From an uncultured Methanolobus sp. (GTDB taxonomy: Archaea; Halobacteriota; Methanosarcinia; Methanosarcinales; Methanosarcinaceae), in NCBI GenBank assembly GCA_963675495.1, contig OY776215.1:1017546-1081545 (forward strand): DNA of 64,000 bases, given 5' to 3'. This document shows positions 26,656 to 36,908 of the stretch, in pieces; the stretch's first letter is position 1; each line of letters begins with the position of its first letter. The position numbers were made by a program, and so were the translations under genes. Under the pieces are notes generated by a model. That model ran no database searches. It was not told the origin of the DNA and worked only from the letters and a program-made list of their open reading frames with translations.

Positions 26656-27153
26656 ATGAAAACATTAGTAACATATATGTCACAGACAGGGAATACAAAA
26701 AAACTGGCAGAAGCAATTTTTACTGAAATTGCTGGTGAAAAGGATATAAAAGACATTAAGGATGCAAGCAATTTTGAAGGCTATGATCTTGTATTTGTAG
26801 GATTTCCGGTAATTCAATTCACAATTCCACCGAATATTTCCAAATTTGTTTCAGAGAATGTGGATGATAAGAACATAGCATTCTTCATGACCCATGGTGT
26901 TCCTGATGGATTTGAAGCCATTAAATCATGGACAGGATCAATAAAGGATATAGCAGCCAGTGGTAATTTACTTGGTACATTTGAATGTCAGGGTGAGATT
27001 GCACAGAACGTTCTTGATATGCTCGAAAAGTCCGATGATCCTGAAATGAAGGCCTTTGCCAAGTTGGGTCCTGGCGCAAAAGGACAGCCTGATGAAGCCC
27101 ATGTTCAGAAAGTAAAGGACTTTGCAAAGGAAATTCAGTCAAAGGTCCAGTAA
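26656..27153 (+). CDS. Flavodoxin-family protein (paralog 1)
   Basis: FMN phosphate-binding N-terminus MKTLVTYMSQTGNTKKLAE. The ATG at 26656 is preceded by GAGGTGG. It has a close paralog at 34814-35311. Confidence 0.85.
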   Translation: MKTLVTYMSQTGNTKKLAEAIFTEIAGEKDIKDIKDASNFEGYDLVFVGFPVIQFTIPPNISKFVSENVDDKNIAFFMTHGVPDGFEAIKSWTGSIKDIAASGNLLGTFECQGEIAQNVLDMLEKSDDPEMKAFAKLGPGAKGQPDEAHVQKVKDFAKEIQSKVQ

Positions 27154-27435
27154 AGAGTTACTAATGGTTGTATCCGGGCTAAAGCAAAACTGAATACTAC
27201 TGCTTAACATCTGATCAGCCAATTCCAAAGTAAATATTAAAAAATGAAAGGCAATAGAAGCCTTTTATTCTCTTTTTTTTAAGAAATTGTGTAACAGTAT
27301 AGGCTCCCCGGAGATTATCCACCTATTATAGTTATTATAATAACAACCGACATAATGTCCACAACATTCTTTTAATATTATAATAATATTGGATTATATA
27401 TTCATACAAACGTCGGAAAAGCAACGGTGTTCAAA

Positions 27436-30048
27436 ATGATTTCAAAAAAGTTACACATAGTCAGATATTCAATGATATTGCTGATCTTCATATCATGCAT
27501 TGGAATCGTATCTGCAGCGACAATCACCGTTGGGGACAGCGGAAAGGACCATACCACAATAAGCGCTGCAGTTTCTAATGCAAGTTCAGGCGATATTATC
27601 CTTGTAAGTGATGGAACTTACACTGAGAATGTAGTTGTCAACAAGGCTGTCACCATTATCTCAGAAAATGGTGCTGCAAGCACGCTAGTTCAGTCAACTG
27701 GCAGCCATATTATTAGTATAAGCTCTGATAATGTTACCATTAGTGGATTCAACATAACCTGTACTGTACCCAGCACCCACGCCGGCATATATGTTTCATC
27801 TGCTTCGAATTGTAACATTTCAGATAATAAATTGAATGGAAATTGTTATGGTATTTATCTTGCTTCTTCAAGTAACAATACTTTAAGCAACAATAATGCC
27901 AATAACAATGAGTATGGTATTTATCTGGAAGGTTCAAGTAATTATAATACTTTGACCAGCAATAATGTCAGTTCAAACACGGATTACGGTATTTATCTTG
28001 ATCATTCAAGTAACAATACTTTGACCAGCAACATTGCCAGTGACAATAGGTACGGTATTAATCTTGGTTCTTCAAGTAACAACACTTTGATCAGCAATAA
28101 TGCCAGTTCAAACACTGGTTACGGTATTTCTCTTTCTTATGCTAGTAACAACACTTTGACCAGCAATAATGCCAGTTCAAACACTATTATTGGTATTTAT
28201 CTTTCTTCTGCTAGTAACAACACTTTGACCAGCAATAATGCAAATTCAAACACGCCTCATGGTATTTATCTTGATTCTTCAAGTAACAATACTTTGACCG
28301 GCAATAATGCCAGTTCAAACAATTATTATGGTATTTGTCTTGATTCTTCAAGTAACAATACTTTGACCAGCAATAATGCCAACAACAATGAGTATGGTAT
28401 TTATCTTGATGATTCAAATAACAATACTTTGACTAATAATTTGATGTCATCAAATAGTTATAATTTTGGAATTTCTATTTCATATCTAGAAGATTTCCTG
28501 CATGATATAAACGAGAGCAATTTGGTTGATGGCAAACCACTGTATTATTGGACTAATCGCTCAAATGAAGAAGTACCTTCAGATGCAGGAGCTGTATATG
28601 TGATTAACTCAACAAATATCACTGTAAAGGACATTGAATTAGCTAATGTAGATGCTGGTATTCTGTTTGCGTATACTAACAATTCAACAATACAGAACGT
28701 CACCGTATCAAAAGGCTATACTAGTGTTCTGTTTGCGTATACTAACAATTCAACAATACAGAACGTCACCGTATCAGAAGGCTTTATTGGTGTTCAACTG
28801 GTATTTTCAAGCTATAACATTCTTGATGCTATCACTGCTAATAATACTGCTTGCGGTATCTATCTTGACTATTCCAGTTACAATGCTTTGACCAGCAATA
28901 ATGCCAATAACAATGAGTATGGGATTTATCTTCTTGATAGCAGTAACAATACTTTAAGCAATAATAGTGTAATAAATAACTCTATCTATGACTTCAACTC
29001 CGAGTCGACATCATCTGCTAACATAATAGAGAATCTGGTACTGACAAACAACTTCACAGAGATATCGTTTATTAGCGACCCTGGTACTATAGTAAAAGGA
29101 CTTGAAACTGTTGCAGCAACAGTTTCTGGCAAAATTAGCATGAACCATTATGTGACTATTGTCAATTCAAGTGCATCACCTATGAACTTCACATTTCACT
29201 ATAATGATTCCGGGCTGAGTACTACTGATGAATCTTCTGTGGCGTTGTACAGGCTAAATGGCAGCGAATGGCTTGCAGTTTCTGGAACTTCACTCAACAC
29301 AACCGGTAATTATGTTTCTGCCAATCTCACAGAATTCGGTACATTCGGAATCTTTACAGGTGGTGATATTTCCATTTCCTCAAGTTCATCCAGTTCCAGC
29401 TCAAGTGGTGGTTCTGTAGCTTCAAGAGTAATCTCACAGGGAACTGTCGAACAGTTATCTTTAGGTGAGGATGGAGAGATAATGGGTGATACTGTTATTA
29501 AATCATCAGACACAAAAGCGACATTAACACTGTACAAAGGAACTGTGGCTCTTGATTCCTTTGACGAACTTGTGAATAAAGTTATGATCACCGTTCCGGC
29601 ATCTCTGCCGGCAGACGTTCCTGCAGATATGGCTTATTCAGGTCTTTACTATGAATTCGGGCCATCAGGAACCACTGTAAATAAAGATGTCATGGTCACC
29701 ATCGATTTCGATCCGGTAGAATTTGAAGGTAGAAGTCCGATCATCTATACTTACACTTCTGAAGATGGATGGGTAGCCCTGGAAACAACAGTTGACTGGG
29801 AAAATGGCAGAGCAACAACAATGACACGTTACTTTTCGACCTGTGCATTATTTGGAGCCGATGTGGAAGAAGTAGAGGAGAATGTGGTGGAAACAGTGGC
29901 ATTAGATTCCTCGCCAGTTACATGTGTAGAAACACCGGTTGAGGATGATACAGGTTTAGGTTACCTCAATTGGATTGCAGGTGTCGGAATTGTTCTGATG
30001 CTTGGAATCGTCCTTGTAAGAAAACAAAAGAGTGGTGGAGGGCTTTAA
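27436..30048 (+). CDS. Secreted, membrane-anchored parallel beta-helix (PbH1/NosD-like) repeat surface protein
   Basis: Signal peptide (LLIFISCIGIVSA) and about nine 22-23-aa coils of the form NNTLTSNNASSN..YGIYL. Also a poly-Ser linker and a C-terminal TM plus basic tail (GIVLMLGIVLVRKQK). Confidence 0.8.
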   Translation: MISKKLHIVRYSMILLIFISCIGIVSAATITVGDSGKDHTTISAAVSNASSGDIILVSDGTYTENVVVNKAVTIISENGAASTLVQSTGSHIISISSDNVTISGFNITCTVPSTHAGIYVSSASNCNISDNKLNGNCYGIYLASSSNNTLSNNNANNNEYGIYLEGSSNYNTLTSNNVSSNTDYGIYLDHSSNNTLTSNIASDNRYGINLGSSSNNTLISNNASSNTGYGISLSYASNNTLTSNNASSNTIIGIYLSSASNNTLTSNNANSNTPHGIYLDSSSNNTLTGNNASSNNYYGICLDSSSNNTLTSNNANNNEYGIYLDDSNNNTLTNNLMSSNSYNFGISISYLEDFLHDINESNLVDGKPLYYWTNRSNEEVPSDAGAVYVINSTNITVKDIELANVDAGILFAYTNNSTIQNVTVSKGYTSVLFAYTNNSTIQNVTVSEGFIGVQLVFSSYNILDAITANNTACGIYLDYSSYNALTSNNANNNEYGIYLLDSSNNTLSNNSVINNSIYDFNSESTSSANIIENLVLTNNFTEISFISDPGTIVKGLETVAATVSGKISMNHYVTIVNSSASPMNFTFHYNDSGLSTTDESSVALYRLNGSEWLAVSGTSLNTTGNYVSANLTEFGTFGIFTGGDISISSSSSSSSSSGGSVASRVISQGTVEQLSLGEDGEIMGDTVIKSSDTKATLTLYKGTVALDSFDELVNKVMITVPASLPADVPADMAYSGLYYEFGPSGTTVNKDVMVTIDFDPVEFEGRSPIIYTYTSEDGWVALETTVDWENGRATTMTRYFSTCALFGADVEEVEENVVETVALDSSPVTCVETPVEDDTGLGYLNWIAGVGIVLMLGIVLVRKQKSGGGL
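27829..28462 (+). repeat. About nine tandem 66-69-nt coding repeats (beta-helix coils) inside the surface-protein gene
   Basis: Periodic DNA and protein repeat (aacaatactttgaccagcaataatgcc...ggtatttatctt) read directly in the sequence. Confidence 0.85.
28661..28792 (+). repeat. Recent 66-bp (22-codon) tandem duplication
   Basis: 28661-28726 and 28727-28792 are identical over the first 50 nt (ttctgtttgcgtatactaacaattcaacaatacagaacgtcaccgtatca) and then diverge at a few positions. Confidence 0.9.
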
Positions 30049-30146
30049 GCCTTCCAATTCTTTTTTTTAAATATCAATTACGCCCCTTCACTTTTATTGA
30101 ATAAGAGATTTCAACAGAGCCCATAAATTGATAATTGAAATGGGGT

Positions 30147-30200
30147 ATTTTTCTGTACTAATTTGAATGTTGTACATAATCATAACGATTAAGTATATAT
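30147..30200 (+). promoter_or_regulatory. Shared promoter/operator module, copy A (upstream of the DUF1638 gene)
   Basis: ATTTTTCTGTAC-N12-TGTACATAATCATAACGATTAAGTATATAT. It has the inverted half-sites TGTAC/GTACA and a terminal TATA-like box, 229 nt before the ATG at 30429. Confidence 0.7.
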
Positions 30201-30428
30201 CAATGCATTATTTATCTTAATCTAGTAATAATTGATAGAACTGGAATACATCAAAAAATACGTAGAAGATGCTAATGAAAAATAACTCAAATCCTTTTGC
30301 TTTCTTGGCCAGAAGTTACAGGGACAGTAAGTAGAATTCATTAGAGATCTGCTATTTTATTTTTTGATTATATCCATGTTATATTTAATGCACAGATATT
30401 TCAGAACCAATGCATTCGGAGGGTGAAA

Positions 30429-31250
30429 ATGACTGTATTAAGCATATTAGGTTGCAAAATGCTTCAGGATGAAGTTGTATGGCTTTTGAGCAATGATTCC
30501 AGAATTTCAAAAGTAATGATTGTGGAAAGTGAAAATATTTCTGAATTCATTGGGAAACTTGATGAGCAACATACATCTTATGAAATTCTACAACTTGAAA
30601 CTATCTCAAATATCCTTAAGGATGAAGATAAGGATGAACTAACTGTTGTCGTTAACTTCCTTGAACTTCAACTTCATGTAGTGCCAAAAAAACTAAAATC
30701 TGGTGTTTATGAAACCATAGAAAAAATGACACCATTTTCCAGTGGGATCCTCCTATTTTATGGCCTCTGCGGTAACGTTCTGGGTAATGTAGAAGAAGAT
30801 TTCTGTCTGGAAAAAGATGGTTGTGTCGTGAGAATACTCAGAGACGATGAAAGAATTGTTGATGACTGCATAGGGGCAACTGTCGGGGGTGGTGCAAACT
30901 ACTTGAAATTACTGAAAGAAAACAGTAAAGAGCCTGCATTCTATTTCACACCCATGTATGTCAATTCATGGAAAGAATTCAATATTTCAGGCTATGATTA
31001 TAATACAAACCCTGAAAAAGCAGTGAAGATGGACAAAATGATCAATGACCTGGCAGGATACTCAAGAGTTGCAAAGGTCAATACCGGTCTTACATATGTG
31101 AAGGATTTTGATGAGAAAATAGAAGAATATGCAAAAATATTTGGATACAGTATTTTTGAGATAGATGGCAATCAGGAAATATTCGAGAAATGTTATGCTT
31201 CAATAAAAAATGAAATAACCGGCGAAGATTCAGTGAACGGATGTAGCTGA
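30429..31250 (+). CDS. DUF1638 domain protein
   Basis: 273 aa. Pattern GILLFYGLCGN, DDCIGA, YFTP..W as I recall for DUF1638. ATG at 30429 after GGAGGG (GTG at 30423 is the alternative). Confidence 0.6.
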   Translation: MTVLSILGCKMLQDEVVWLLSNDSRISKVMIVESENISEFIGKLDEQHTSYEILQLETISNILKDEDKDELTVVVNFLELQLHVVPKKLKSGVYETIEKMTPFSSGILLFYGLCGNVLGNVEEDFCLEKDGCVVRILRDDERIVDDCIGATVGGGANYLKLLKENSKEPAFYFTPMYVNSWKEFNISGYDYNTNPEKAVKMDKMINDLAGYSRVAKVNTGLTYVKDFDEKIEEYAKIFGYSIFEIDGNQEIFEKCYASIKNEITGEDSVNGCS

Positions 31251-31535
31251 TTTTTCTTTTTTATCAGGTTGATAAAAACCCATTTTTTGCAATGTTTCGA
31301 TCTGTTCATCGAAACGTGTTTCAGCTCGTCCTAAACAATTGGCACATTGATCAGATCCTGCCGCAATTTGCTTGAGCTTATCGAAATTGTTTTTTAAATG
31401 TAAAATATTATCCTTTGATAATTCTCCTTCTTTTGCATAATTGGCTAAACCTTCAAAATGAGCAATAAAATTTGGTTCACATCCACTGATGTCACCAGAA
31501 TTTGAGGGGACGAATTGATGGAATGGGTAGACAAG
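31230..31535 (-). pseudogene. Start-less remnant of a regulator-like gene (N-terminal part only)
   Basis: 101 open codons on the minus strand (...CANCLGRAETRFDEQIETLQKMGFY...) with no ATG/GTG/TTG before the last about 20 codons. It shares a 51-nt segment (48/51) with 35676-35726. Confidence 0.45.
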
Positions 31536-31600
31536 TCACTGTACATTCAGAAGAAAAGTAAATGACTTTTTAGACAACAAAATAACAACTGTGTTTAGTC

Positions 31601-31654
31601 ATTTTTCTGTACAAAGGCAACTTCAGTACATAATTATAACGCTTAAGTATATAT
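31601..31654 (+). promoter_or_regulatory. Shared promoter/operator module, copy B (upstream of the Isf-like pair and ribBA)
   Basis: ATTTTTCTGTAC-N12-AGTACATAATTATAACGCTTAAGTATATAT, exactly 70 nt before the ATG at 31724. Confidence 0.7.
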
Positions 31655-31723
31655 TCATACACTCCATGTTATTATTTGCGCCCATTCACGAAAATAGATA
31701 GAAACTAATGGAGGAGCTTAAAT

Positions 31724-32425
31724 ATGAAAATACTAGGAATATCAGGAAGCCCAAGACCAGAATCACGTTCAGATTCTATTAAAATGGTACAGAAAGTCCT
31801 TGAGAACACAGGATGTGAATATGAACTTATTTCATTACAGGGTAAGAAAATCAATGGCTGTATCGCATGTATGGCATGCGTTCATGATAATGTATGCAAA
31901 GTAAATGATGACATGAAAACCTTGCGTGATAAAATTGTTGAAGCTGATGCATATGTTTTGAGTGGTGTCAACTACTACAATACGTTGAATGCATTGATGC
32001 ACTCTTTCATGGAAAGATGGTACCAATTCAGGCACCGTGAAGCTGATATCCTCTGGGGAAAGCTTGCAGTTACTGTCAGTCTTGGGGGTTTTAATCCTGC
32101 ACCACCTGCTGAGCTTCTAAATACAATGTGCTTAACCAACTTGATTAAGGTTACAGATACTATTGAAGGAATAGGTGCTTTTGGCTGTTGTTATTGCGGA
32201 TATGGTGAAACCTGCAAGGTAGGAGGGCACTATAACAAATATGGACCTGACGTTCCAATCACTCCGGAAACCATTCCTGATGTTACAAAGGATGAAGCAG
32301 TCATGCTTGCAGCTGAGCAGGCAGGTAAAAAGCTCGGTGAACAACTGCGTTCTGCTGATTATAGCCGTGAGAAAACAACTCAAGAGCTTATGCAAGCTAT
32401 GTTGTCCATGGAAGGCTATGAGTAA
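31724..32425 (+). CDS. Iron-sulfur flavoprotein (Isf) / NADPH-dependent FMN reductase-like protein
   Basis: Flavodoxin-like N-terminus MKILGISGSPR and compact Cys motif CIACMACVHDNVC, as in Methanosarcina Isf. Confidence 0.75.
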   Translation: MKILGISGSPRPESRSDSIKMVQKVLENTGCEYELISLQGKKINGCIACMACVHDNVCKVNDDMKTLRDKIVEADAYVLSGVNYYNTLNALMHSFMERWYQFRHREADILWGKLAVTVSLGGFNPAPPAELLNTMCLTNLIKVTDTIEGIGAFGCCYCGYGETCKVGGHYNKYGPDVPITPETIPDVTKDEAVMLAAEQAGKKLGEQLRSADYSREKTTQELMQAMLSMEGYE

Positions 32426-32472
32426 TCATCGTAGTTTATAGATTTATATGAAATGTTTATTGGAGGAATATT

Positions 32473-33132
32473 ATGAAAGTTATAGGAGTTTCTGGCTCAC
32501 CATCACCAAACAGTAACACTGACAGGGCCGTTAAAGCAGTACTTGAATCAACTGGAATGGAAACGGAATTCATTAAACTTAGTAATTACAAATTTGAACC
32601 ATGCCGTGCCTGTTTGAAATGTGCTACTACCAATGTATGTATTCTTAAGGACGATGCAACCGAACTGGCACAAAAAATAAAGGATGCCGATGCACTTGTT
32701 GTTGGTGGTTATTCTCCGTATAGCTCACTGGATGGACGGACAAAATCTTTCCTTGAACGTCTCTATTGCCTGCGTCATCAAAAAGGTCTTATGAGAGGTA
32801 AAATCGGGGGCATAGTCATCACATCCGCAGTCCCGCAACAGGAACCATACCCTCCGGTAGCAGATGTGGGAGTTGCTGTTGTAAAATCATACATGCAGGG
32901 AGAAGGAATGAATGTTGTCGGTGATGTGAAGATATTCGGCACGGCAACTTGTGCGAAATGTGGCTATGGCAATGAGTGTGAGCTCAGCGGAATTAAAGGG
33001 ATCTTTGGTCCTGATGCTACAGTTGAAGGTGTTGGATGTCCACGTTTCGAGGACCAGCCTGAAACGTTGAAGGCAGCACAGGAACTGGGTGAAAATATCG
33101 CACAGGAACTCAGGAAAGATTCAGACGAATGA
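32473..33132 (+). CDS. Iron-sulfur flavoprotein (Isf)-like protein, paralog
   Basis: MKVIGVSGSPS and Cys motif CRACLKCATTNVC; tandem with the previous gene. Confidence 0.75.
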   Translation: MKVIGVSGSPSPNSNTDRAVKAVLESTGMETEFIKLSNYKFEPCRACLKCATTNVCILKDDATELAQKIKDADALVVGGYSPYSSLDGRTKSFLERLYCLRHQKGLMRGKIGGIVITSAVPQQEPYPPVADVGVAVVKSYMQGEGMNVVGDVKIFGTATCAKCGYGNECELSGIKGIFGPDATVEGVGCPRFEDQPETLKAAQELGENIAQELRKDSDE

Positions 33133-33249
33133 GGGGATCTGGCATAGTCCGAATGAAAAGAAAAGAAAAGAAAGTAAGATTTGACTTATTACAAAGGCTG
33201 TGACAGTGACAATAATTTAACAGGATTAATATAAGGAGTGAGTTCGAAT

Positions 33250-34479
33250 ATGTCTAAAATAACCATTGAGCAGGCCATTAAGGACATCAGGGCCGGGCGT
33301 ATGGTCATTCTTGTGGATGATGAAGATCGAGAGAATGAAGGGGATTTGACCATGGCAGCAGAGGCGGTGACCCCTGAAGCTATTAATTTTATGGCCAGGT
33401 ATGGTCGCGGTCTGATCTGCCTTTCCATGACCGGTGAAACGGCTGACCGGTTGGGCCTCCCCATGATGGTGGAGAAAAACACCTCTTCCTTTGAGACCGG
33501 ATTTACCGTTTCAATTGAAGCAAAGAAAGGAGTGACCACCGGCATTTCTGCTGCAGACAGGGCCACCACCATTCAGACTGCCATTGCCGATGCTGCAACT
33601 GCGGACGACCTTGTTCGGCCTGGCCACATTTTTCCTCTGAGGGCCAGGGATAATGGTGTCATGGTTCGTGTGGGCCAGACAGAAGGCTCTGTGGATCTGG
33701 CACATCTTGCCGGATGCAAGCCTGCCGGTGTCATCTGTGAGATAATGGATGATGACGGTACCATGGCCAGAATGCCCTCCCTGGAAAAATTCAGCGAAAA
33801 ACATGGCATCGGTATCTGTACAGTGGCGAATCTTGTGAAGTATCGACTGAAGACAGAATCTTTTGTCAGAAAAGCAGCCGAAACTGTTATTCCCACGAAA
33901 TATGGCGGTGAGTTTCGAATGATCGCCTATGAAAATGACCTGGATAACCTTACCCACATAGCAATGGTCAAAGGTGAAGTCGATCCTGAAAAGGACATCC
34001 TCGTAAGAGTTCATTCAGAATGTATGACAGGAGATATTTTCGGCTCCATGAGATGTGACTGCGACGACCAACTCCATAAAGCCATGGCCATGGTGGAGAA
34101 AGAGGGAAGTGGTGTTATTATTTATCTCAGACAGGAAGGCCGAGGGATTGGCTTGGTCAATAAACTCAAGGCCTACGAACTCCAGCGCCGGGGATACGAC
34201 ACGGTTGATGCCAATCTTGAGTTGGGATTTGATGCCGATATGAGGGATTATGGTGTCGGAGCCCAGATTCTTACAGATCTGGGAGTTCGAAAAATGCGTC
34301 TGATGACCAACAATCCAACAAAGATAATGGGTCTTGAAGAATATGGATTAAGTGTGGTGGAACGGGTGCCTATTGAAATAATGCCCAATTCGCTTAATAA
34401 TGATTATCTCAATTGTAAGCAATTGAAAATGGGACATCTTTTAAAAAGGGATAGCCAATTGTTAATTTGTGATCAATGA
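33250..34479 (+). CDS. ribBA: Bifunctional 3,4-dihydroxy-2-butanone-4-phosphate synthase / GTP cyclohydrolase II (bacterial-type RibBA)
   Basis: RibB part: VILVDDEDRENEGDL, GRGLICL, VRPGHIFPL. RibA part: VRVHSECMTGDIFGSMRCDC, YLRQEGRGIGL. The GTG at 33238 is an alternative start. Confidence 0.9.
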   Translation: MSKITIEQAIKDIRAGRMVILVDDEDRENEGDLTMAAEAVTPEAINFMARYGRGLICLSMTGETADRLGLPMMVEKNTSSFETGFTVSIEAKKGVTTGISAADRATTIQTAIADAATADDLVRPGHIFPLRARDNGVMVRVGQTEGSVDLAHLAGCKPAGVICEIMDDDGTMARMPSLEKFSEKHGIGICTVANLVKYRLKTESFVRKAAETVIPTKYGGEFRMIAYENDLDNLTHIAMVKGEVDPEKDILVRVHSECMTGDIFGSMRCDCDDQLHKAMAMVEKEGSGVIIYLRQEGRGIGLVNKLKAYELQRRGYDTVDANLELGFDADMRDYGVGAQILTDLGVRKMRLMTNNPTKIMGLEEYGLSVVERVPIEIMPNSLNNDYLNCKQLKMGHLLKRDSQLLICDQ

Positions 34480-34690
34480 TTGGCCCGCTTTTCTTTTTCA
34501 ATCAAGTTATTGGCATGCTTTTAAAATAAATTATAGAGTCAAATAGCTAAAATGGGCAAGATAATTTTGAAGACTCTGTGAACTAATGAGGGAAGTTCCC
34601 GTTTCAGTCACCATTAATTGATATTTGCCACTGGAGTGTTAGCTGTCAACGATTATTGGGGAGAAAGTATTTTACAAACTTGAATAGGTT

Positions 34691-34744
34691 ATTTTTCTGT
34701 ACTCAGACGACATCAGTACATAATCATAACGCTTAAGTATATAT
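34691..34744 (+). promoter_or_regulatory. Shared promoter/operator module, copy C (upstream of flavodoxin paralog 2)
   Basis: ATTTTTCTGTAC-N12-AGTACATAATCATAACGCTTAAGTATATAT, exactly 70 nt before the ATG at 34814. The leader is also similar to that of copy B. Confidence 0.7.
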
Positions 34745-34813
34745 TCCTATACTGCAAATCATTAATTGCGATTATTTACGGAAATGACAGGAACCATTGG
34801 AGGAACATTAAAT

Positions 34814-35311
34814 ATGAAAACATTAGTAACATATTTTTCACAGACAGGAAACACAAAGAAAATAGCTGAAGCAATTTATGACGAGATTACCGGTGAAAAG
34901 GACATTCAGGAGATCAAGGACGTAAGCAATCTTGAAGACTATGATCTTATATTCGTGGGATCTCCAGTAATGGAATTTAACATACCTAAGAAAGTTACAA
35001 ATTTCATTTCAAATAATGTGGCTGGTAAAAACATAGCATTCTTCATGACCCATGCTGTTCCAGAAGGATTCGAGGCCATTAAATCATGGACTGGCTCCAT
35101 CGAGGATTTTGCAGCTAGTGGAAATTTCCTTGGTACATTTGAATGTCAGGGAGAACTCGCACAGCCTGTTTATGACATGTTGATTGGATCCGATGACCCG
35201 GAAATGAAAGGATTTGCTGAAATGAGTTTATCTGGAAAAGGACAGCCTGACGAAATTCATGTACAGATGGCAAAGGAGTTTGCAAAAGAGATTCAGGCAA
35301 AAGTCCAGTGA
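34814..35311 (+). CDS. Flavodoxin-family protein (paralog 2)
   Basis: MKTLVTYFSQTGNTKKIAE; collinear with 26656-27153 over the full length with most residues identical. Confidence 0.85.
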   Translation: MKTLVTYFSQTGNTKKIAEAIYDEITGEKDIQEIKDVSNLEDYDLIFVGSPVMEFNIPKKVTNFISNNVAGKNIAFFMTHAVPEGFEAIKSWTGSIEDFAASGNFLGTFECQGELAQPVYDMLIGSDDPEMKGFAEMSLSGKGQPDEIHVQMAKEFAKEIQAKVQ

Positions 35312-35339
35312 CCTATTTTCCTATTTTTCTTTTTTGATC

Positions 35340-35731
35340 TCAATTTTGTATACTATTCCCAATATCCAATGCTTTTACAAGATCTAGCAGTGAATTAAGG
35401 AGATTATGTCCTTTCAGACTGATATGATATTCACCTCGCTCTTCACGCTGGTGTATCAATCCTTTGCTTTGCAATTTATCCAGATAGACAGAAGATTTCC
35501 ACCACGAAGTTTTGTGAGTTTTGAAAGTGCAGTAAATGATTTGCCCTCATCATACAATGCTTTCATGATTTGAACTCTTGCAGCGCAGTTCAATGCATCC
35601 CCTACCAGACTGGAGATCTCTTTTTCCGGAATGTCCTGCACTTGCATCTGCTCGTCGTTATCAGAATGGTAGAAGCCCATTTTTTGCAATGTTTCGATCT
35701 GTTCTTCGAAACATATTTCAGCTCGTTTAAC
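35340..35731 (-). pseudogene. Disrupted ArsR-like winged-helix regulator gene (upstream in-frame stop plus internal frameshift)
   Basis: The listed ORF 35456-35689 carries the HTH start (ARVQIMKALYDEGKSFTALSKLTKLRGGNL). The expected continuation YLDKLQSKGLIHQREERGEYHISLKGHNLL... is in another frame down to the stop at 35340-35342. A TAG lies at 35732-35734 upstream. Confidence 0.5.
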
Positions 35732-36045
35732 CTATGTCTGCAGAAAGCTATTAAAATTAAAGCAGAGAGAAATTCAAATTCCCGATTCAAAAATGAAAAT
35801 GCGACTCTAAAAGAGATTATAGAGTCTAATATCTAAATATAGCCTTACTATCTTTGCAATGGATAGACATTTCAGTTTTGTAATTTCTTGATACCCGGAC
35901 ACTAATCCATTTAAAACAGTGCGTAACTCCCCTCAAAGCTGTATTTGCAAAAATACACAACAATAAGGATTGAGGGAACAGGGGAAGAAATATCATATGA
36001 GTGTGTCAAGTAACTTATTTGGAATCTGTTGTAGGGAGTGCTAAA

Positions 36046-36501
36046 ATGGCCGATAAAGCAAAGGAAATATCTTGTCCAATCTGCGGAAAAACAGGAGTTC
36101 CTGTTGAAAATTTGACAGTAGAACAAATGGTGAAAGAAGAGTTTGTGGATGAGTTGAATGATGATGATCACTGGCTTTGCATGAGTGAGGAATGTGAAGT
36201 TGCATACTACACCGATTCAGGTAGAAAATTCAATACAGAAGACATAAAAGTACCTATCTGGTTCAAGAAAGACGCTGATCCTAAGTACGCATGCTATTGC
36301 AACAACATAACTGAAGAACAGGTAATTGATGCAGTGGTCAATCAGGGCCTTGGCAACATGAGAGATATCATTGTTTCGATCAACGGAAAAGCCAGAATAC
36401 GATGCAAGGCCAAAAATCCTACCGGAAAACGCTGTACTAAGGTCTTCAATGAAGCAATAAAAAAAGGTATGGATATCAAGAACAAAGGAGAACGGACATG
36501 A
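36046..36501 (+). CDS. Cys-rich metal-binding protein (N-terminal zinc-ribbon/CopZ-N-like, C-terminal BFD-like [2Fe-2S] domain)
   Basis: CPICG...WLCMSEECEVAYY, then YACYCNNITEEQVIDAV...RCKAKNPTGKRC. ATG at 36046 after GGGAG. Confidence 0.5.
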   Translation: MADKAKEISCPICGKTGVPVENLTVEQMVKEEFVDELNDDDHWLCMSEECEVAYYTDSGRKFNTEDIKVPIWFKKDADPKYACYCNNITEEQVIDAVVNQGLGNMRDIIVSINGKARIRCKAKNPTGKRCTKVFNEAIKKGMDIKNKGERT

Positions 36502-36908
36502 AAATAGCCGTCAGATACTATACCAGATCAGGAAACACAAAAAAAATTGCAGATGAGATTGCGGAAGCAGTTGGAGTAGAGGCGCTGCCAGTCACTCAGC
36601 CAATTACTGAGAATCTGGATATTCTTTTTCTGGGAAGTTCAGTTTATGCATCAGGAGTTGCAGCCGATGTTAAAAAATTCATAGCTTCAATTGACTGCTC
36701 TATTGGAATGCTTGTTAATTTCAGTACTTCTGCATCGTCTAAATCTACATACGAACGAGTAAAAAAGCTTGCAGATGACAAAGAGATCAAAATATCCGAT
36801 AAAGAATACCATTGTCTGGGTTCTTATGGCCAGAGGAATAAAGGCAAGCCAGACGAGGAAGATATTCAAAATGCTGCTATCTTTGCAAAAGAGATCGTGC
36901 AATCATGA
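36498..36908 (+). CDS. Flavodoxin-like protein
   Basis: MKIAVRYYTRSGNTKKIADEIAE; 4-nt ATGA overlap with the preceding gene. Confidence 0.75.
   Translation: MKIAVRYYTRSGNTKKIADEIAEAVGVEALPVTQPITENLDILFLGSSVYASGVAADVKKFIASIDCSIGMLVNFSTSASSKSTYERVKKLADDKEIKISDKEYHCLGSYGQRNKGKPDEEDIQNAAIFAKEIVQS

Follow-up and report, generated by a model that had tools for sequence, protein, structure and literature searches.

A 64,000-nucleotide (64-kb) stretch of the genome of an uncultured Methanolobus sp. (contig OY776215.1, positions 1,017,546 to 1,081,545; hereafter the window) carries one promoter module three times, upstream of a DUF1638 gene, of an Isf-Isf-RibBA gene group and of a flavodoxin gene, and thereby raises the question of what this element is and which protein reads it. 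Few transcription factor-operator pairs have been defined in methanogens, where the sensing of oxidants and of iron shortage is largely open and MsvR provides the main case. We conclude that the module is probably a composite promoter, in which a 43-bp operator, a 6-nt linker and a TATA element form a single unit that would be bound by a family of cysteine-rich ArsR-type regulators and would control a set of flavoprotein genes. The core of the initial annotation of this locus, namely that a palindrome read by a regulator stands at a set distance just before an archaeal TATA element and serves a few flavoprotein genes, is thus supported by sequence comparison, with several of its details revised below.

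Three copies of a composite operator-promoter

Direct reading and a repeat search (family D4) recover the three annotated copies, A, B and C, at positions 30147-30200, 31601-31654 and 34691-34744. The core pattern TTCTGTAC-N13-GTACATAAT has exactly three matches on the plus strand of the window, at 30151, 31605 and 34695, as compared with 0.10 ± 0.30 matches in the shuffled window (0 of 100 shuffles reach three), and a relaxed arm-pair scan of the whole window found no arm-like 15-mer pair beyond these sites. The conserved block starts 3 nt earlier than first delimited, at 30144, 31598 and 34688; the inverted repeat recognized in the initial annotation through its TGTAC/GTACA half-sites is therefore longer, with arms of 15 rather than 5 nt. 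The window copies consist of a 43-bp dyad, GTyATTTTTCTGTAC-N13-GTACATAAtyATAAC, followed by 6 nt (GmTTAA) and then by GTATATAT. Across the family the order is GTyATTTTTCTGTAC, a free spacer, GTACAkAATTATrAC, 6 nt (GCTCAA or GCTTAA) and GTATATA(A/T), whose dyad can be read as the tetramers GTCA-N7-GTAC ... GTAC-N7-TGAC in two 15-nt arms spanning 42-44 bp in total; as an arm pair the operator can be written as GTYAKWWWWNTRTAC, 12-14 nt and the reverse complement. The A/T filler of the arms is asymmetric (TTTTTC in the distal versus ATAATT in the proximal arm) and this asymmetry is kept across genera, so that sequence rather than base-pairing is under selection. ATAAC, initially assigned to the TFB-recognition element (BRE), is in fact the outer end of the proximal arm, and as a BRE candidate GCTTAA alone remains.

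In module A, which precedes the DUF1638 gene, the distal arm GGTATTTTTCTGTAC (30144-30158, plus strand; 14 of 15 positions identical to the family consensus GTyATTTTTCTGTAC) is separated by a non-conserved 13-nt spacer (30159-30171) from the proximal arm GTACATAATCATAAC (30172-30186, plus strand), and the linker GATTAA with the TATA-like GTATATAT, read from the sequence, occupies 30187-30200 on the same strand. Module B comprises, all on the plus strand, the distal arm GTCATTTTTCTGTAC (31598-31612), a spacer at 31613-31625, the proximal arm GTACATAATTATAAC (31626-31640) and GCTTAA plus GTATATAT (31641-31654), with GGAGGA at 31711-31716 and the ATG at 31724. Module C, likewise on the plus strand, comprises the distal arm GTTATTTTTCTGTAC (34688-34702), a spacer at 34703-34715, the proximal arm GTACATAATCATAAC (34716-34730) and GCTTAA plus GTATATAT (34731-34744), with the ATG at 34814; the orthologous site in Methanohalophilus levihalophilus (locus L007, 18158-18200) has a spacer of equal length. 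Transcription would start about 23 nt beyond GTATATAT, which places the predicted transcription start sites (TSSs) at about 30222-30225 for A, about 31676-31679 for B and about 34766-34769 for C, and would leave module A with a leader of about 205 nt to the ATG at 30429.

Segment by segment, the copies differ in a telling manner. B and C are identical at 42 of 44 positions in arms, linker and TATA, compared with 8 of 13 in the spacer, 51 of 69 in the leader and 35 of 60 in the 60 nt upstream; A matches B or C at 40-42 of the 44 positions and at 6 of 13 in the spacer, its leader and flanks being unrelated. The original statement that the spacer varies while the rest is shared thus holds, as does that of similar leaders in B and C, and this selective conservation implies that B and C are, by sequence, old duplicates in which the functional parts alone were kept fixed, those same parts being all that A shares with them. 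The distance from module end to ATG is, as first reported, 70 nt in B and C and 229 nt in A; the interval between TGGAGGA and TAAATATG, given initially as 5 nt, measures 3 nt in B and 4 nt in C.

The DUF1638 leader (30201-30428) is long and varies in length, from 113 nt in Methanococcoides sp. LMO-2 through 196 nt in Methanococcoides alaskense to 229 nt in the window, with conserved patches between the two closest genomes. A riboswitch or other RNA element in this 229-nt leader was considered and rejected, as it has no Rfam match and no consensus structure emerged from three orthologous leaders (-1.97 kcal/mol); the leader may hold a second promoter or small element. An Rfam scan returned nothing at the modules themselves, and a sigma-70 promoter and terminator scan of the window stayed at shuffle level, with a model that is irrelevant for an archaeon.

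Conservation of the module across methanogens

To compare orthologous promoters, loci were fetched by protein rather than by motif. DUF1638 orthologues carry the module in M. alaskense (L001, spacer of 14 nt), Methanococcoides sp. LMO-2 (L003, spacer of 12 nt), Methanolobus sp. ZRKC2 (L004, with a TATAC variant) and a provirus cassette; the module also precedes flavodoxin genes in LMO-2, M. levihalophilus, the Methanolobus cassette and one metagenome contig, and variants of it stand at genes for PNPOx-like proteins in LMO-2 and Methanosarcina horonobensis. At two DUF1638 paralogues located behind a TetR gene the module was not found.

A scan of a 596-Gb genome collection with the pattern TGTAC-N12-14-GTRCA-N6-TRAC-N6-GTATATA yielded 27 matching stretches, 26 of them from methanogens (many Methanosarcina, other Methanosarcinaceae, M. 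alaskense, two Methanogenium and one Methanoregula) and one a deltaproteobacterial chance match without the outer arm. There are one or two matches per genome, always 5' of a few gene families and in a single orientation relative to the gene. In a profile of 32 non-redundant instances, conservation extends to positions that the search pattern did not include (1.0-2.0 bits at distal arm positions 1-10 and 0.9-1.6 bits in the linker), while the spacer carries 0-0.7 bits and measures 12 nt in 21, 13 nt in seven and 14 nt in four instances. The distance from arm to TATA is a fixed 6 nt in all 32; the TATA element, GTATATA(A/T), does not vary and in most cases precedes the start codon by 35-70 nt, the TSSs being inferred from sequence. 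A metagenome scan with a pattern requiring neither the TATA nor the outer proximal arm gave 17 matches, of which eight have the full proximal arm, GCTCAx and, at the fixed operator distance, a TATA element that the pattern had not imposed; the other nine have none of these and represent chance. This clean split argues that the operator-TATA link is no artefact of the first pattern.

The genes behind the module encode flavodoxin, Isf, a 134-143-aa PNPOx-like protein binding flavin mononucleotide (FMN), DUF1638, an MTH865-like protein and a 66-69-aa Cys-rich protein, a set that RibBA joins in the cassette of the window. The regulon initially described as a small flavoprotein regulon therefore keeps its flavoprotein character and is neither small nor local, extending as it does across methanogens.

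Several further arrangements accompany this set. The 66-69-aa four-Cys protein (PKYCTCASKCSQNCELAK), which has no Pfam family, is the commonest first gene product behind the module in Methanosarcina (L010 5718-5918; also L009, L018-L030, L035, L043, L044, L050 and L056) and its gene is often followed by that of a ~145-aa protein, taken from its sequence to be CoA-binding-like, of a Rieske-like protein or of DUF1638; a 102-116-aa paralogue lies behind a second module in L020, L030 and L054. Upstream of PNPOx-like genes a second operator class, GTyAGAAATnTGTAC-N14-GTAyAyTTTTGTAAC, is found (L037 9921-9964; L017 1792-1835; L028 817-860), which may be matched to another branch of the regulator family described below (P0153, P0156, P0204). 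The TetR gene mentioned above precedes a DUF1638-DUF1638-radical SAM-DUF2115 cluster and is flanked by near-identical palindromes, cctatctacatgtaggtagata (L007 9215-9250 and 9895-9925; also L005 and L008); judged by this layout, the cluster is a separate regulatory unit for the other DUF1638 paralogues. Finally, the 15-mer also occurs as a direct repeat with the 13-nt spacer kept, in the Isf/regulator intergenic regions of M. levihalophilus (L007) and the Methanolobus cassette, and, again with a 13-nt spacer, in M. alaskense upstream of the regulator gene P0128; among the tabulated loci this direct-repeat arrangement is listed for L007 and L036.

A cysteine-rich ArsR-type regulator family beside the module

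The gene that diverges from the Isf-RibBA-flavodoxin genes of M. levihalophilus codes for a protein of 253 aa whose C-terminal part is a winged helix. Of the 23 genome loci with enough upstream sequence, 17 have a homologue of this protein encoded divergently next to the module, and homologues are present beside all eight true metagenome loci. The start codon of the regulator gene lies 4 to 246 nt from the distal arm; the promoter of that gene and the operator therefore frequently overlap, which makes autoregulation likely.

Family members are 247-290 aa long. The HTH_5 profile, for a helix-turn-helix (HTH) domain, scores 30.8 bits for the L010 protein and 23.0 bits for the L007 protein against a cut-off of 22, and an AlphaFold2 model (AF2; mean predicted local distance difference test score 79.5, above 90 over the HTH) predicts an N-terminal helix of 66 residues followed by a helical middle domain and the winged helix. 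The top 50 Foldseek matches in the PDB are mostly ArsR/SmtB proteins with some of MarR type (target-normalised TM score ~0.65-0.75, E value 2e-3 or weaker), the best being NolR, SrnR, CadC, BigR, HlyU, CzrA and SqrR, and in these only the C-terminal ~95 residues align. For the N-terminal ~160 residues neither Pfam nor the PDB provided a match. Four cysteines precede the HTH, which starts at residue ~163, and form a Cx5C pair (Cys71/Cys77) and a CxxC pair (Cys125/Cys128): Cys71, Cys125 and Cys128 are invariant and Cys77 is conserved in at least 90% of a 55-sequence alignment, and all four are invariant in an 18-sequence alignment. The recognition helix, RGGNLLFH, is likewise invariant among the 55 sequences.

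The family comprises at least 372 clusters at 90% identity. Among the best 120 of the 372 matches, every organism-named one is a methanogen or Methanoperedens, and on these sequences the family appears restricted to methanogens and anaerobic methanotrophic archaea (ANME); annotation among the matches listed goes no further than 'ArsR family / winged helix'. A literature search, for which subscription journals were mostly out of reach so that a prior description is possible, found no paper on the regulator or the motif. Taken together, the sequence comparisons indicate that the module marks a genuine flavoprotein regulon that probably responds to redox state or iron.

Genes behind the modules and decayed regulator copies in the window

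Pfam bears out the gene assignments made initially, namely DUF1638, two Isf-type FMN_red proteins, a fused RibBA and a flavodoxin, all on the plus strand. The DUF1638 gene (30429-31250) encodes 273 aa from the ATG, with an alternative GTG start at 30423, and matches PF07796 with 138 bits. Behind module B, Isf1 (31724-32425; FMN_red, 56.9 bits) combines the FMN_red fold with CIACMACVHDNVC, a CX2CX2CX5C motif, and is 77% identical in amino acid sequence to the Isf of the L038 cassette; its paralogue Isf2 (32473-33132; FMN_red, 65.4 bits) has the motif CRACLKCATTNVC. Both fit what we take to be the mark of the Isf family, a flavodoxin-like FMN_red fold with a compact N-terminal CX2CX2CX4-7C, and neither has a close sequence match in the PDB. 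RibBA, a fused DHBP synthase/GTP cyclohydrolase II (33250-34479; Pfam 286.8 and 255.3 bits), starts 117 nt after Isf2 and is assumed to be cotranscribed with the Isf genes. Its DNA is 92.8% identical to that of M. levihalophilus L007, and its GC content of 47%, compared with 36-41% in its neighbours, is the highest of the region. RibBA is of bacterial type, and a sub-threshold Rfam match to the Vibrio antisense RNA AS9 within it (33347-33450, minus strand; 47.5 bits against a gathering threshold of 50) probably reflects similarity of the ribB coding sequence only and suggests a horizontal origin.

Behind module C, flavodoxin 2 (34814-35311; 165 aa) matches Pfam Flavodoxin_3/5; we do not equate it with FldA of M. 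acetivorans, the nearest solved flavodoxin being related only at an E value of 3e-10. Two further flavodoxin-type genes lie at 26656-27153 (Fld1) and 36001-36908, and no module was found in the window outside the three known sites; the Fld1 protein is 71.5% identical to the flavodoxin of the L038 cassette. A flavodoxin-like gene overlaps the end of a gene for a zf_CopZ/BFD-like [2Fe-2S] protein, and the CopZ-flavodoxin-AlkZ trio is also present in M. alaskense. Upstream of module A, a gene at 27427-30048 encodes an 873-aa protein with tandem 69-nt (23-aa) repeats, SSNNTLTSNNASSNxxYGIYL (families D1-D3), which, from its sequence, resembles a beta-helix surface protein anchored in the membrane at its C terminus.

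The window also holds two remnants of the regulator. Fragment 1, on the minus strand at 31230-31540, covers residues ~77-152 of a 253-aa member and shows 54-57% identity to P0128/P0131 of M. alaskense in tblastn; it has no start codon, no HTH and no Pfam match, and the first Cys of Cx5C is lost. It lies divergent from module B at a distance of 58 nt, which is where the regulator gene typically sits, and runs up to the adjoining DUF1638 gene. Fragment 2 (35340-35731, minus strand; identified by Pfam on a repaired translation) is the C-terminal half, residues ~130-251 with linker and winged helix, in which a 1-nt deletion near 35487 breaks the recognition helix and from which the N-terminal Cys domain is missing. 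With the frameshift repaired, it scores 28.6 bits for HTH_45 (cut-off 25.5) and, below cut-off, 18.5 bits for HTH_5. Its counterpart by synteny is the 222-aa P0128 of M. alaskense, located between the flavodoxin gene and the CopZ/flavodoxin-like/AlkZ genes, and the 69-nt repeat D5 of the window is the part of the gene that both fragments retain. With both linked copies decayed, either a paralogue elsewhere in the genome must serve the operators or regulation of these genes has been lost. In relatives there are two or three regulator paralogues, among which the recognition helix is invariant, so that a paralogue elsewhere could serve these operators, and their perfect state argues for such service within the genome.

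Inside both fragments, at 31294-31315 and 35691-35712, there is a palindrome, GTTTCGATCTGTTC(A/T)TCGAAAC, which reads TTCG-N10-CGAA; it is one nucleotide too long for the MsvR box, TTCGN7-9CGAA, and probably coincides by chance with the conserved FxEQIE peptide. A 30-nt stretch upstream of module C (34522-34551) recurs with 87% identity upstream of fragment 2 (35808-35837) and did not extend further, and ~140 nt between RibBA and module C (34506-34645) are without counterpart in M. levihalophilus; the repeat and the extra segment may be a rearrangement scar.

A provirus-borne cassette in relatives

The DNA of the window from 31708 to 35334 is 82-93% identical to M. levihalophilus, and the regulator is more than 90% identical among Methanohalophilus, a Methanolobus metagenome-assembled genome and Methanosarcina sp. 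WWM596. In the M. levihalophilus and Methanolobus contigs the block runs flavodoxin-RibBA-Isf, divergent regulator, DUF1638, DUF2115, radical SAM and two more DUF1638 genes. Pfam and PHROGs identify a terminase large subunit, a ParB-methyltransferase and a primase on one flank of this block, and a Mu-F-like minor head protein, a head decoration protein and an HK97-type capsid protein (Linocin_M18) on the other (L007 1-9000 and 19000-20804; L038/L039 1-6700 and 15700-20762). By gene content, the cassette of these relatives is located inside a head-tail provirus and looks like a virus-carried auxiliary redox or cofactor module with its own switch. None of the flanking virus genes was found in the 64-kb window, where the cassette is chromosomal and rearranged, and neither the cassette nor a regulator homologue was found in IMG/VR, whose only motif match, inside a portal gene, is due to chance.

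Proposed mechanism and alternative explanations

In the mechanism that we propose, the operator would be the binding site of methanogen-specific one-component regulators of ~250 aa. Within each arm GTCA and GTAC are 11 bp apart, one helical turn, and therefore face the same side of the DNA, as recognition by an ArsR-type dimer requires. Neither the 16-18 bp between the two inner GTAC tetramers nor the 38-40 bp between the outer pair fits a single dimer, and direct repeats would be unreadable by one symmetric dimer, which favours one dimer per arm. The dimers could be bridged via their long N-terminal helices, and two dimers so bridged would tolerate both the 12-14-nt spacers and the direct-repeat arrangements. 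The notion of a dimeric-regulator site next to TATA, put forward in the initial annotation, is thus upheld as to the palindrome, which is fixed upstream of TATA across genera, and probably needs correction to two dimers rather than one.

In its reduced or cluster-bearing form the regulator would repress a strong promoter, and oxidation of the Cys site or loss of its metal or cluster, upon exposure to an oxidant or iron shortage, would lead to release and switch on a set of electron carriers that contain no iron or work with flavin, together with their helpers: flavodoxin, Isf, the PNPOx-like FMN proteins, RibBA for FMN supply, and DUF1638. The sensing element suggested by the Cx5C/CxxC quartet of the helical domain is either a redox-labile Fe-S cluster or a switch of thiol/disulfide (or Zn) type, and the four conserved cysteines point towards a redox, Fe-S or iron signal rather than flavin. 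The target set resembles what has been proposed for Methanosarcina, where flavodoxin would substitute for ferredoxin under iron limitation or oxidative stress (PMC7399021), and DUF1638 has been genetically tied, together with RamA, to the re-reduction of cob(II)alamin (PMC5764234, PMC12478193); corrinoid re-reduction needs low-potential electrons, which provides a rationale for the co-regulation of DUF1638 with flavodoxin and Isf in a methanogen that is methylotrophic. Much more tentatively, the whole could represent a new one-component class present throughout methanogens, pairing an ArsR winged helix with a four-Cys sensor domain, that would sense Fe-S clusters or thiols and, through a two-dimer operator, move cells to electron carriers that use flavin, spare iron and tolerate oxidants, and to DUF1638 as a helper in corrinoid reactivation; the complete cassette (regulator, Isf, RibBA, flavodoxin and DUF1638 genes) would travel between Methanosarcinaceae genera as cargo of head-tail proviruses.

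Several observations weigh against this proposal or parts of it. No intact member of the regulator family was found in the window by tblastn, and none of the best 120 of 372 family matches comes from the 2.87-Mb source contig. The centre-to-centre spacing of the arms, 27-29 bp, does not amount to whole helical turns. The Isf promoter of M. levihalophilus, beside an intact regulator, has a different arrangement with direct repeats, and the MTH865-Isf promoter of M. alaskense has TGTAC-N8-GTACA only. The four cysteines could equally form a structural Zn site, and the regulator could simply belong to the regulon as one of its frequent members without governing it. The operator lies wholly upstream of TATA, the usual position for activation in Archaea, which makes the call of a repressor weak. 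Comparative sequence shows the module, its conservation, its fixed place before TATA, its gene set and its linkage to the regulator gene, and it is from these that binding, stoichiometry, sign of regulation and signal are proposed.

On balance, repression is favoured over activation, at a little better than an even chance, because 6 nt separate the proximal arm from a near-consensus TATA element and ArsR proteins are nearly always repressors. The same operator and regulator could conversely act in activation, with recruitment of TFB/TBP from a site upstream of the BRE, a reading we regard as less likely but plausible. The operator lies entirely upstream of TATA at a rigid 6 nt in 32 of 32 instances, and among archaeal regulators such as Ptr2, SurR and TrmBL1 upstream sites usually activate whereas downstream or overlapping sites usually repress. 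Activation of archaeal rib genes has been proposed for RbkR (PMC5397151). Set against this are the almost universal repressor role of ArsR/SmtB proteins and the apparent strength of the promoter itself, whose TATA element (GTATATAA/T) and linker (GCTCAA/GCTTAA) do not look activator-dependent; the linker fits the BRE consensus, RNWAAW, at five of six positions. If activation were required, loss of the linked regulator would, moreover, silence an otherwise well-kept cassette in the window.

A different transcription factor might bind the module, the ArsR-type gene being only a frequent divergent target; we consider this improbable. It would account for the three perfect operators that the window keeps although both linked regulator copies have decayed, and for several loci with no adjacent regulator, such as DUF1638 of M. 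alaskense and LMO-2 and the PNPOx loci L012, L032 and L033. Sites in trans are, however, normal in any regulon, and the divergent adjacency (17 of 23 genome and 8 of 8 metagenome loci) spans four orders' worth of methanogens, with an invariant recognition helix facing near-invariant operator arms.

It is very unlikely that the copies merely reflect recent promoter duplication or gene conversion in a rearranged, acquired cassette, sharing a strong promoter with no dedicated regulator. B and C are indeed homologous beyond the module, in the leader and spacer (51 of 69 and 8 of 13 positions), module B with its leader is closer to the L007 flavodoxin promoter than the L007 Isf promoter is, and the region is rearranged, with its regulator fragments and a DUF1638 gene abutting fragment 1. 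Such an event accounts for the origin of B but not for arms that stay fixed: A shares with B and C the arms, linker and TATA alone, its spacer agreeing at 6 of 13 positions amid unrelated flanks, and the same arms accompany unrelated spacers in Methanosarcina, Methanogenium and Methanoregula. The dispersed repeat or mobile element at unrelated loci, which the initial annotation had itself weighed, was looked for and not found, and its reading stands: a dispersed repeat, miniature mobile element or cruciform/RNA hairpin, as an inverted repeat in several copies and a provirus-borne cassette in relatives might suggest, is scarcely credible given one or two matches per genome in 596 Gb, all 5' of a few gene families, three copies in 64 kb all upstream of genes and free of flanking duplications, middle arm positions (TTTTC versus ATAAT) that are conserved yet non-complementary, so that pairing is not selected, and a location upstream of TATA that keeps the module out of the transcripts.

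Comparison with known regulators

A sharply defined, conserved operator with a candidate regulator and coherent targets makes the system testable in the genetically tractable Methanosarcina. The shared module groups DUF1638 with low-potential flavin carriers in its regulation, in keeping with the part proposed for it in corrinoid re-reduction, and the provirus version suggests that viruses of methanogens carry auxiliary redox or cofactor genes together with a switch of their own. AmzR (MA2561) was considered as the regulator and rejected, as it belongs to a different family and has no HTH.

The closest relatives by fold are the ArsR/SmtB sensors, above all those based on thiols (BigR, SqrR, HlyU) and those for metals (CzrA, CadC, SmtB), with which the candidate shares the winged-helix fold and Pfam family, a promoter operator and an often divergent gene, a pseudo-palindromic dimer-type site with elements one helical turn apart and, as we infer here, Cys-based sensing. 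ArsR/SmtB proteins are, however, ~100-120 aa long with sensing sites inside the HTH dimer (alpha3N/alpha5), whereas the candidate has ~250 aa with a separate ~160-aa Cys domain, two 15-bp sites per operator, an archaeal TATA promoter and a restriction to methanogens and ANME.

MsvR is methanogen-specific and autoregulated, shows Cys-based redox-sensitive DNA binding, tolerates ±1 nt in spacing and divergently adjoins an oxidative-stress operon in M. thermautotrophicus (PMC3729527). The candidate resembles it in being a methanogen-specific family with divergent placement and differs in architecture and site: MsvR has an N-terminal HTH with a C-terminal V4R domain and the box TTCGN7-9CGAA, in contrast to the C-terminal HTH and the GTCA-N7-GTAC arms described here. 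An identification of the regulator as MsvR is accordingly rejected, since Pfam finds no V4R domain, the HTH is C-terminal and TTCGN7-9CGAA is present in none of the three modules. SurR of Thermococcales resembles the candidate in its ArsR-like winged helix, its CxxC redox switch and its control of electron carriers and redox enzymes beside BRE/TATA. It differs in that CxxC lies within the DNA-binding domain, that its motif is GTTn3AAC and that it has no detectable homology to the N-terminal domain of the candidate.

RbkR provides protein-based control of riboflavin genes in Archaea, including Methanosarcinales, through paired palindromic sites (PMC5397151). It differs from the candidate in that its HTH is fused to a CTP-dependent kinase and its motif in Methanomicrobia is TnnCA-N4-TGnnA. 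No such site was found in 30100-30430, 31550-31724, 33133-33250 (upstream of ribBA) or 34640-34814, and the RbkR motif is not enriched in the window, with 39 matches compared with 31.5 ± 6 expected. Fe-S sensors (IscR/NsrR/RsrR, SufR, FNR, WhiB) and bacterial Fur-type control of flavodoxin and rib genes offer a parallel in logic, in which loss of a Cys-ligated cofactor upon oxidant exposure or iron shortage turns on iron-sparing or repair genes. In FNR and WhiB-type sites, cysteines are likewise spaced as Cx5C and CxxC. SufR is reported to couple an ArsR-like HTH to four Cys (bioRxiv 10.64898/2025.12.26.696629). Outside the HTH these sensors have no sequence relationship to the candidate, whose cofactor is putative and whose domain order is opposite to that of SufR. 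By its sequence features, then, the system is of an ordinary kind, a one-component regulator with its operator; what would be new are the sensor domain, the two-site operator fused to an archaeal TATA element and the methanogen-specific flavoprotein regulon.

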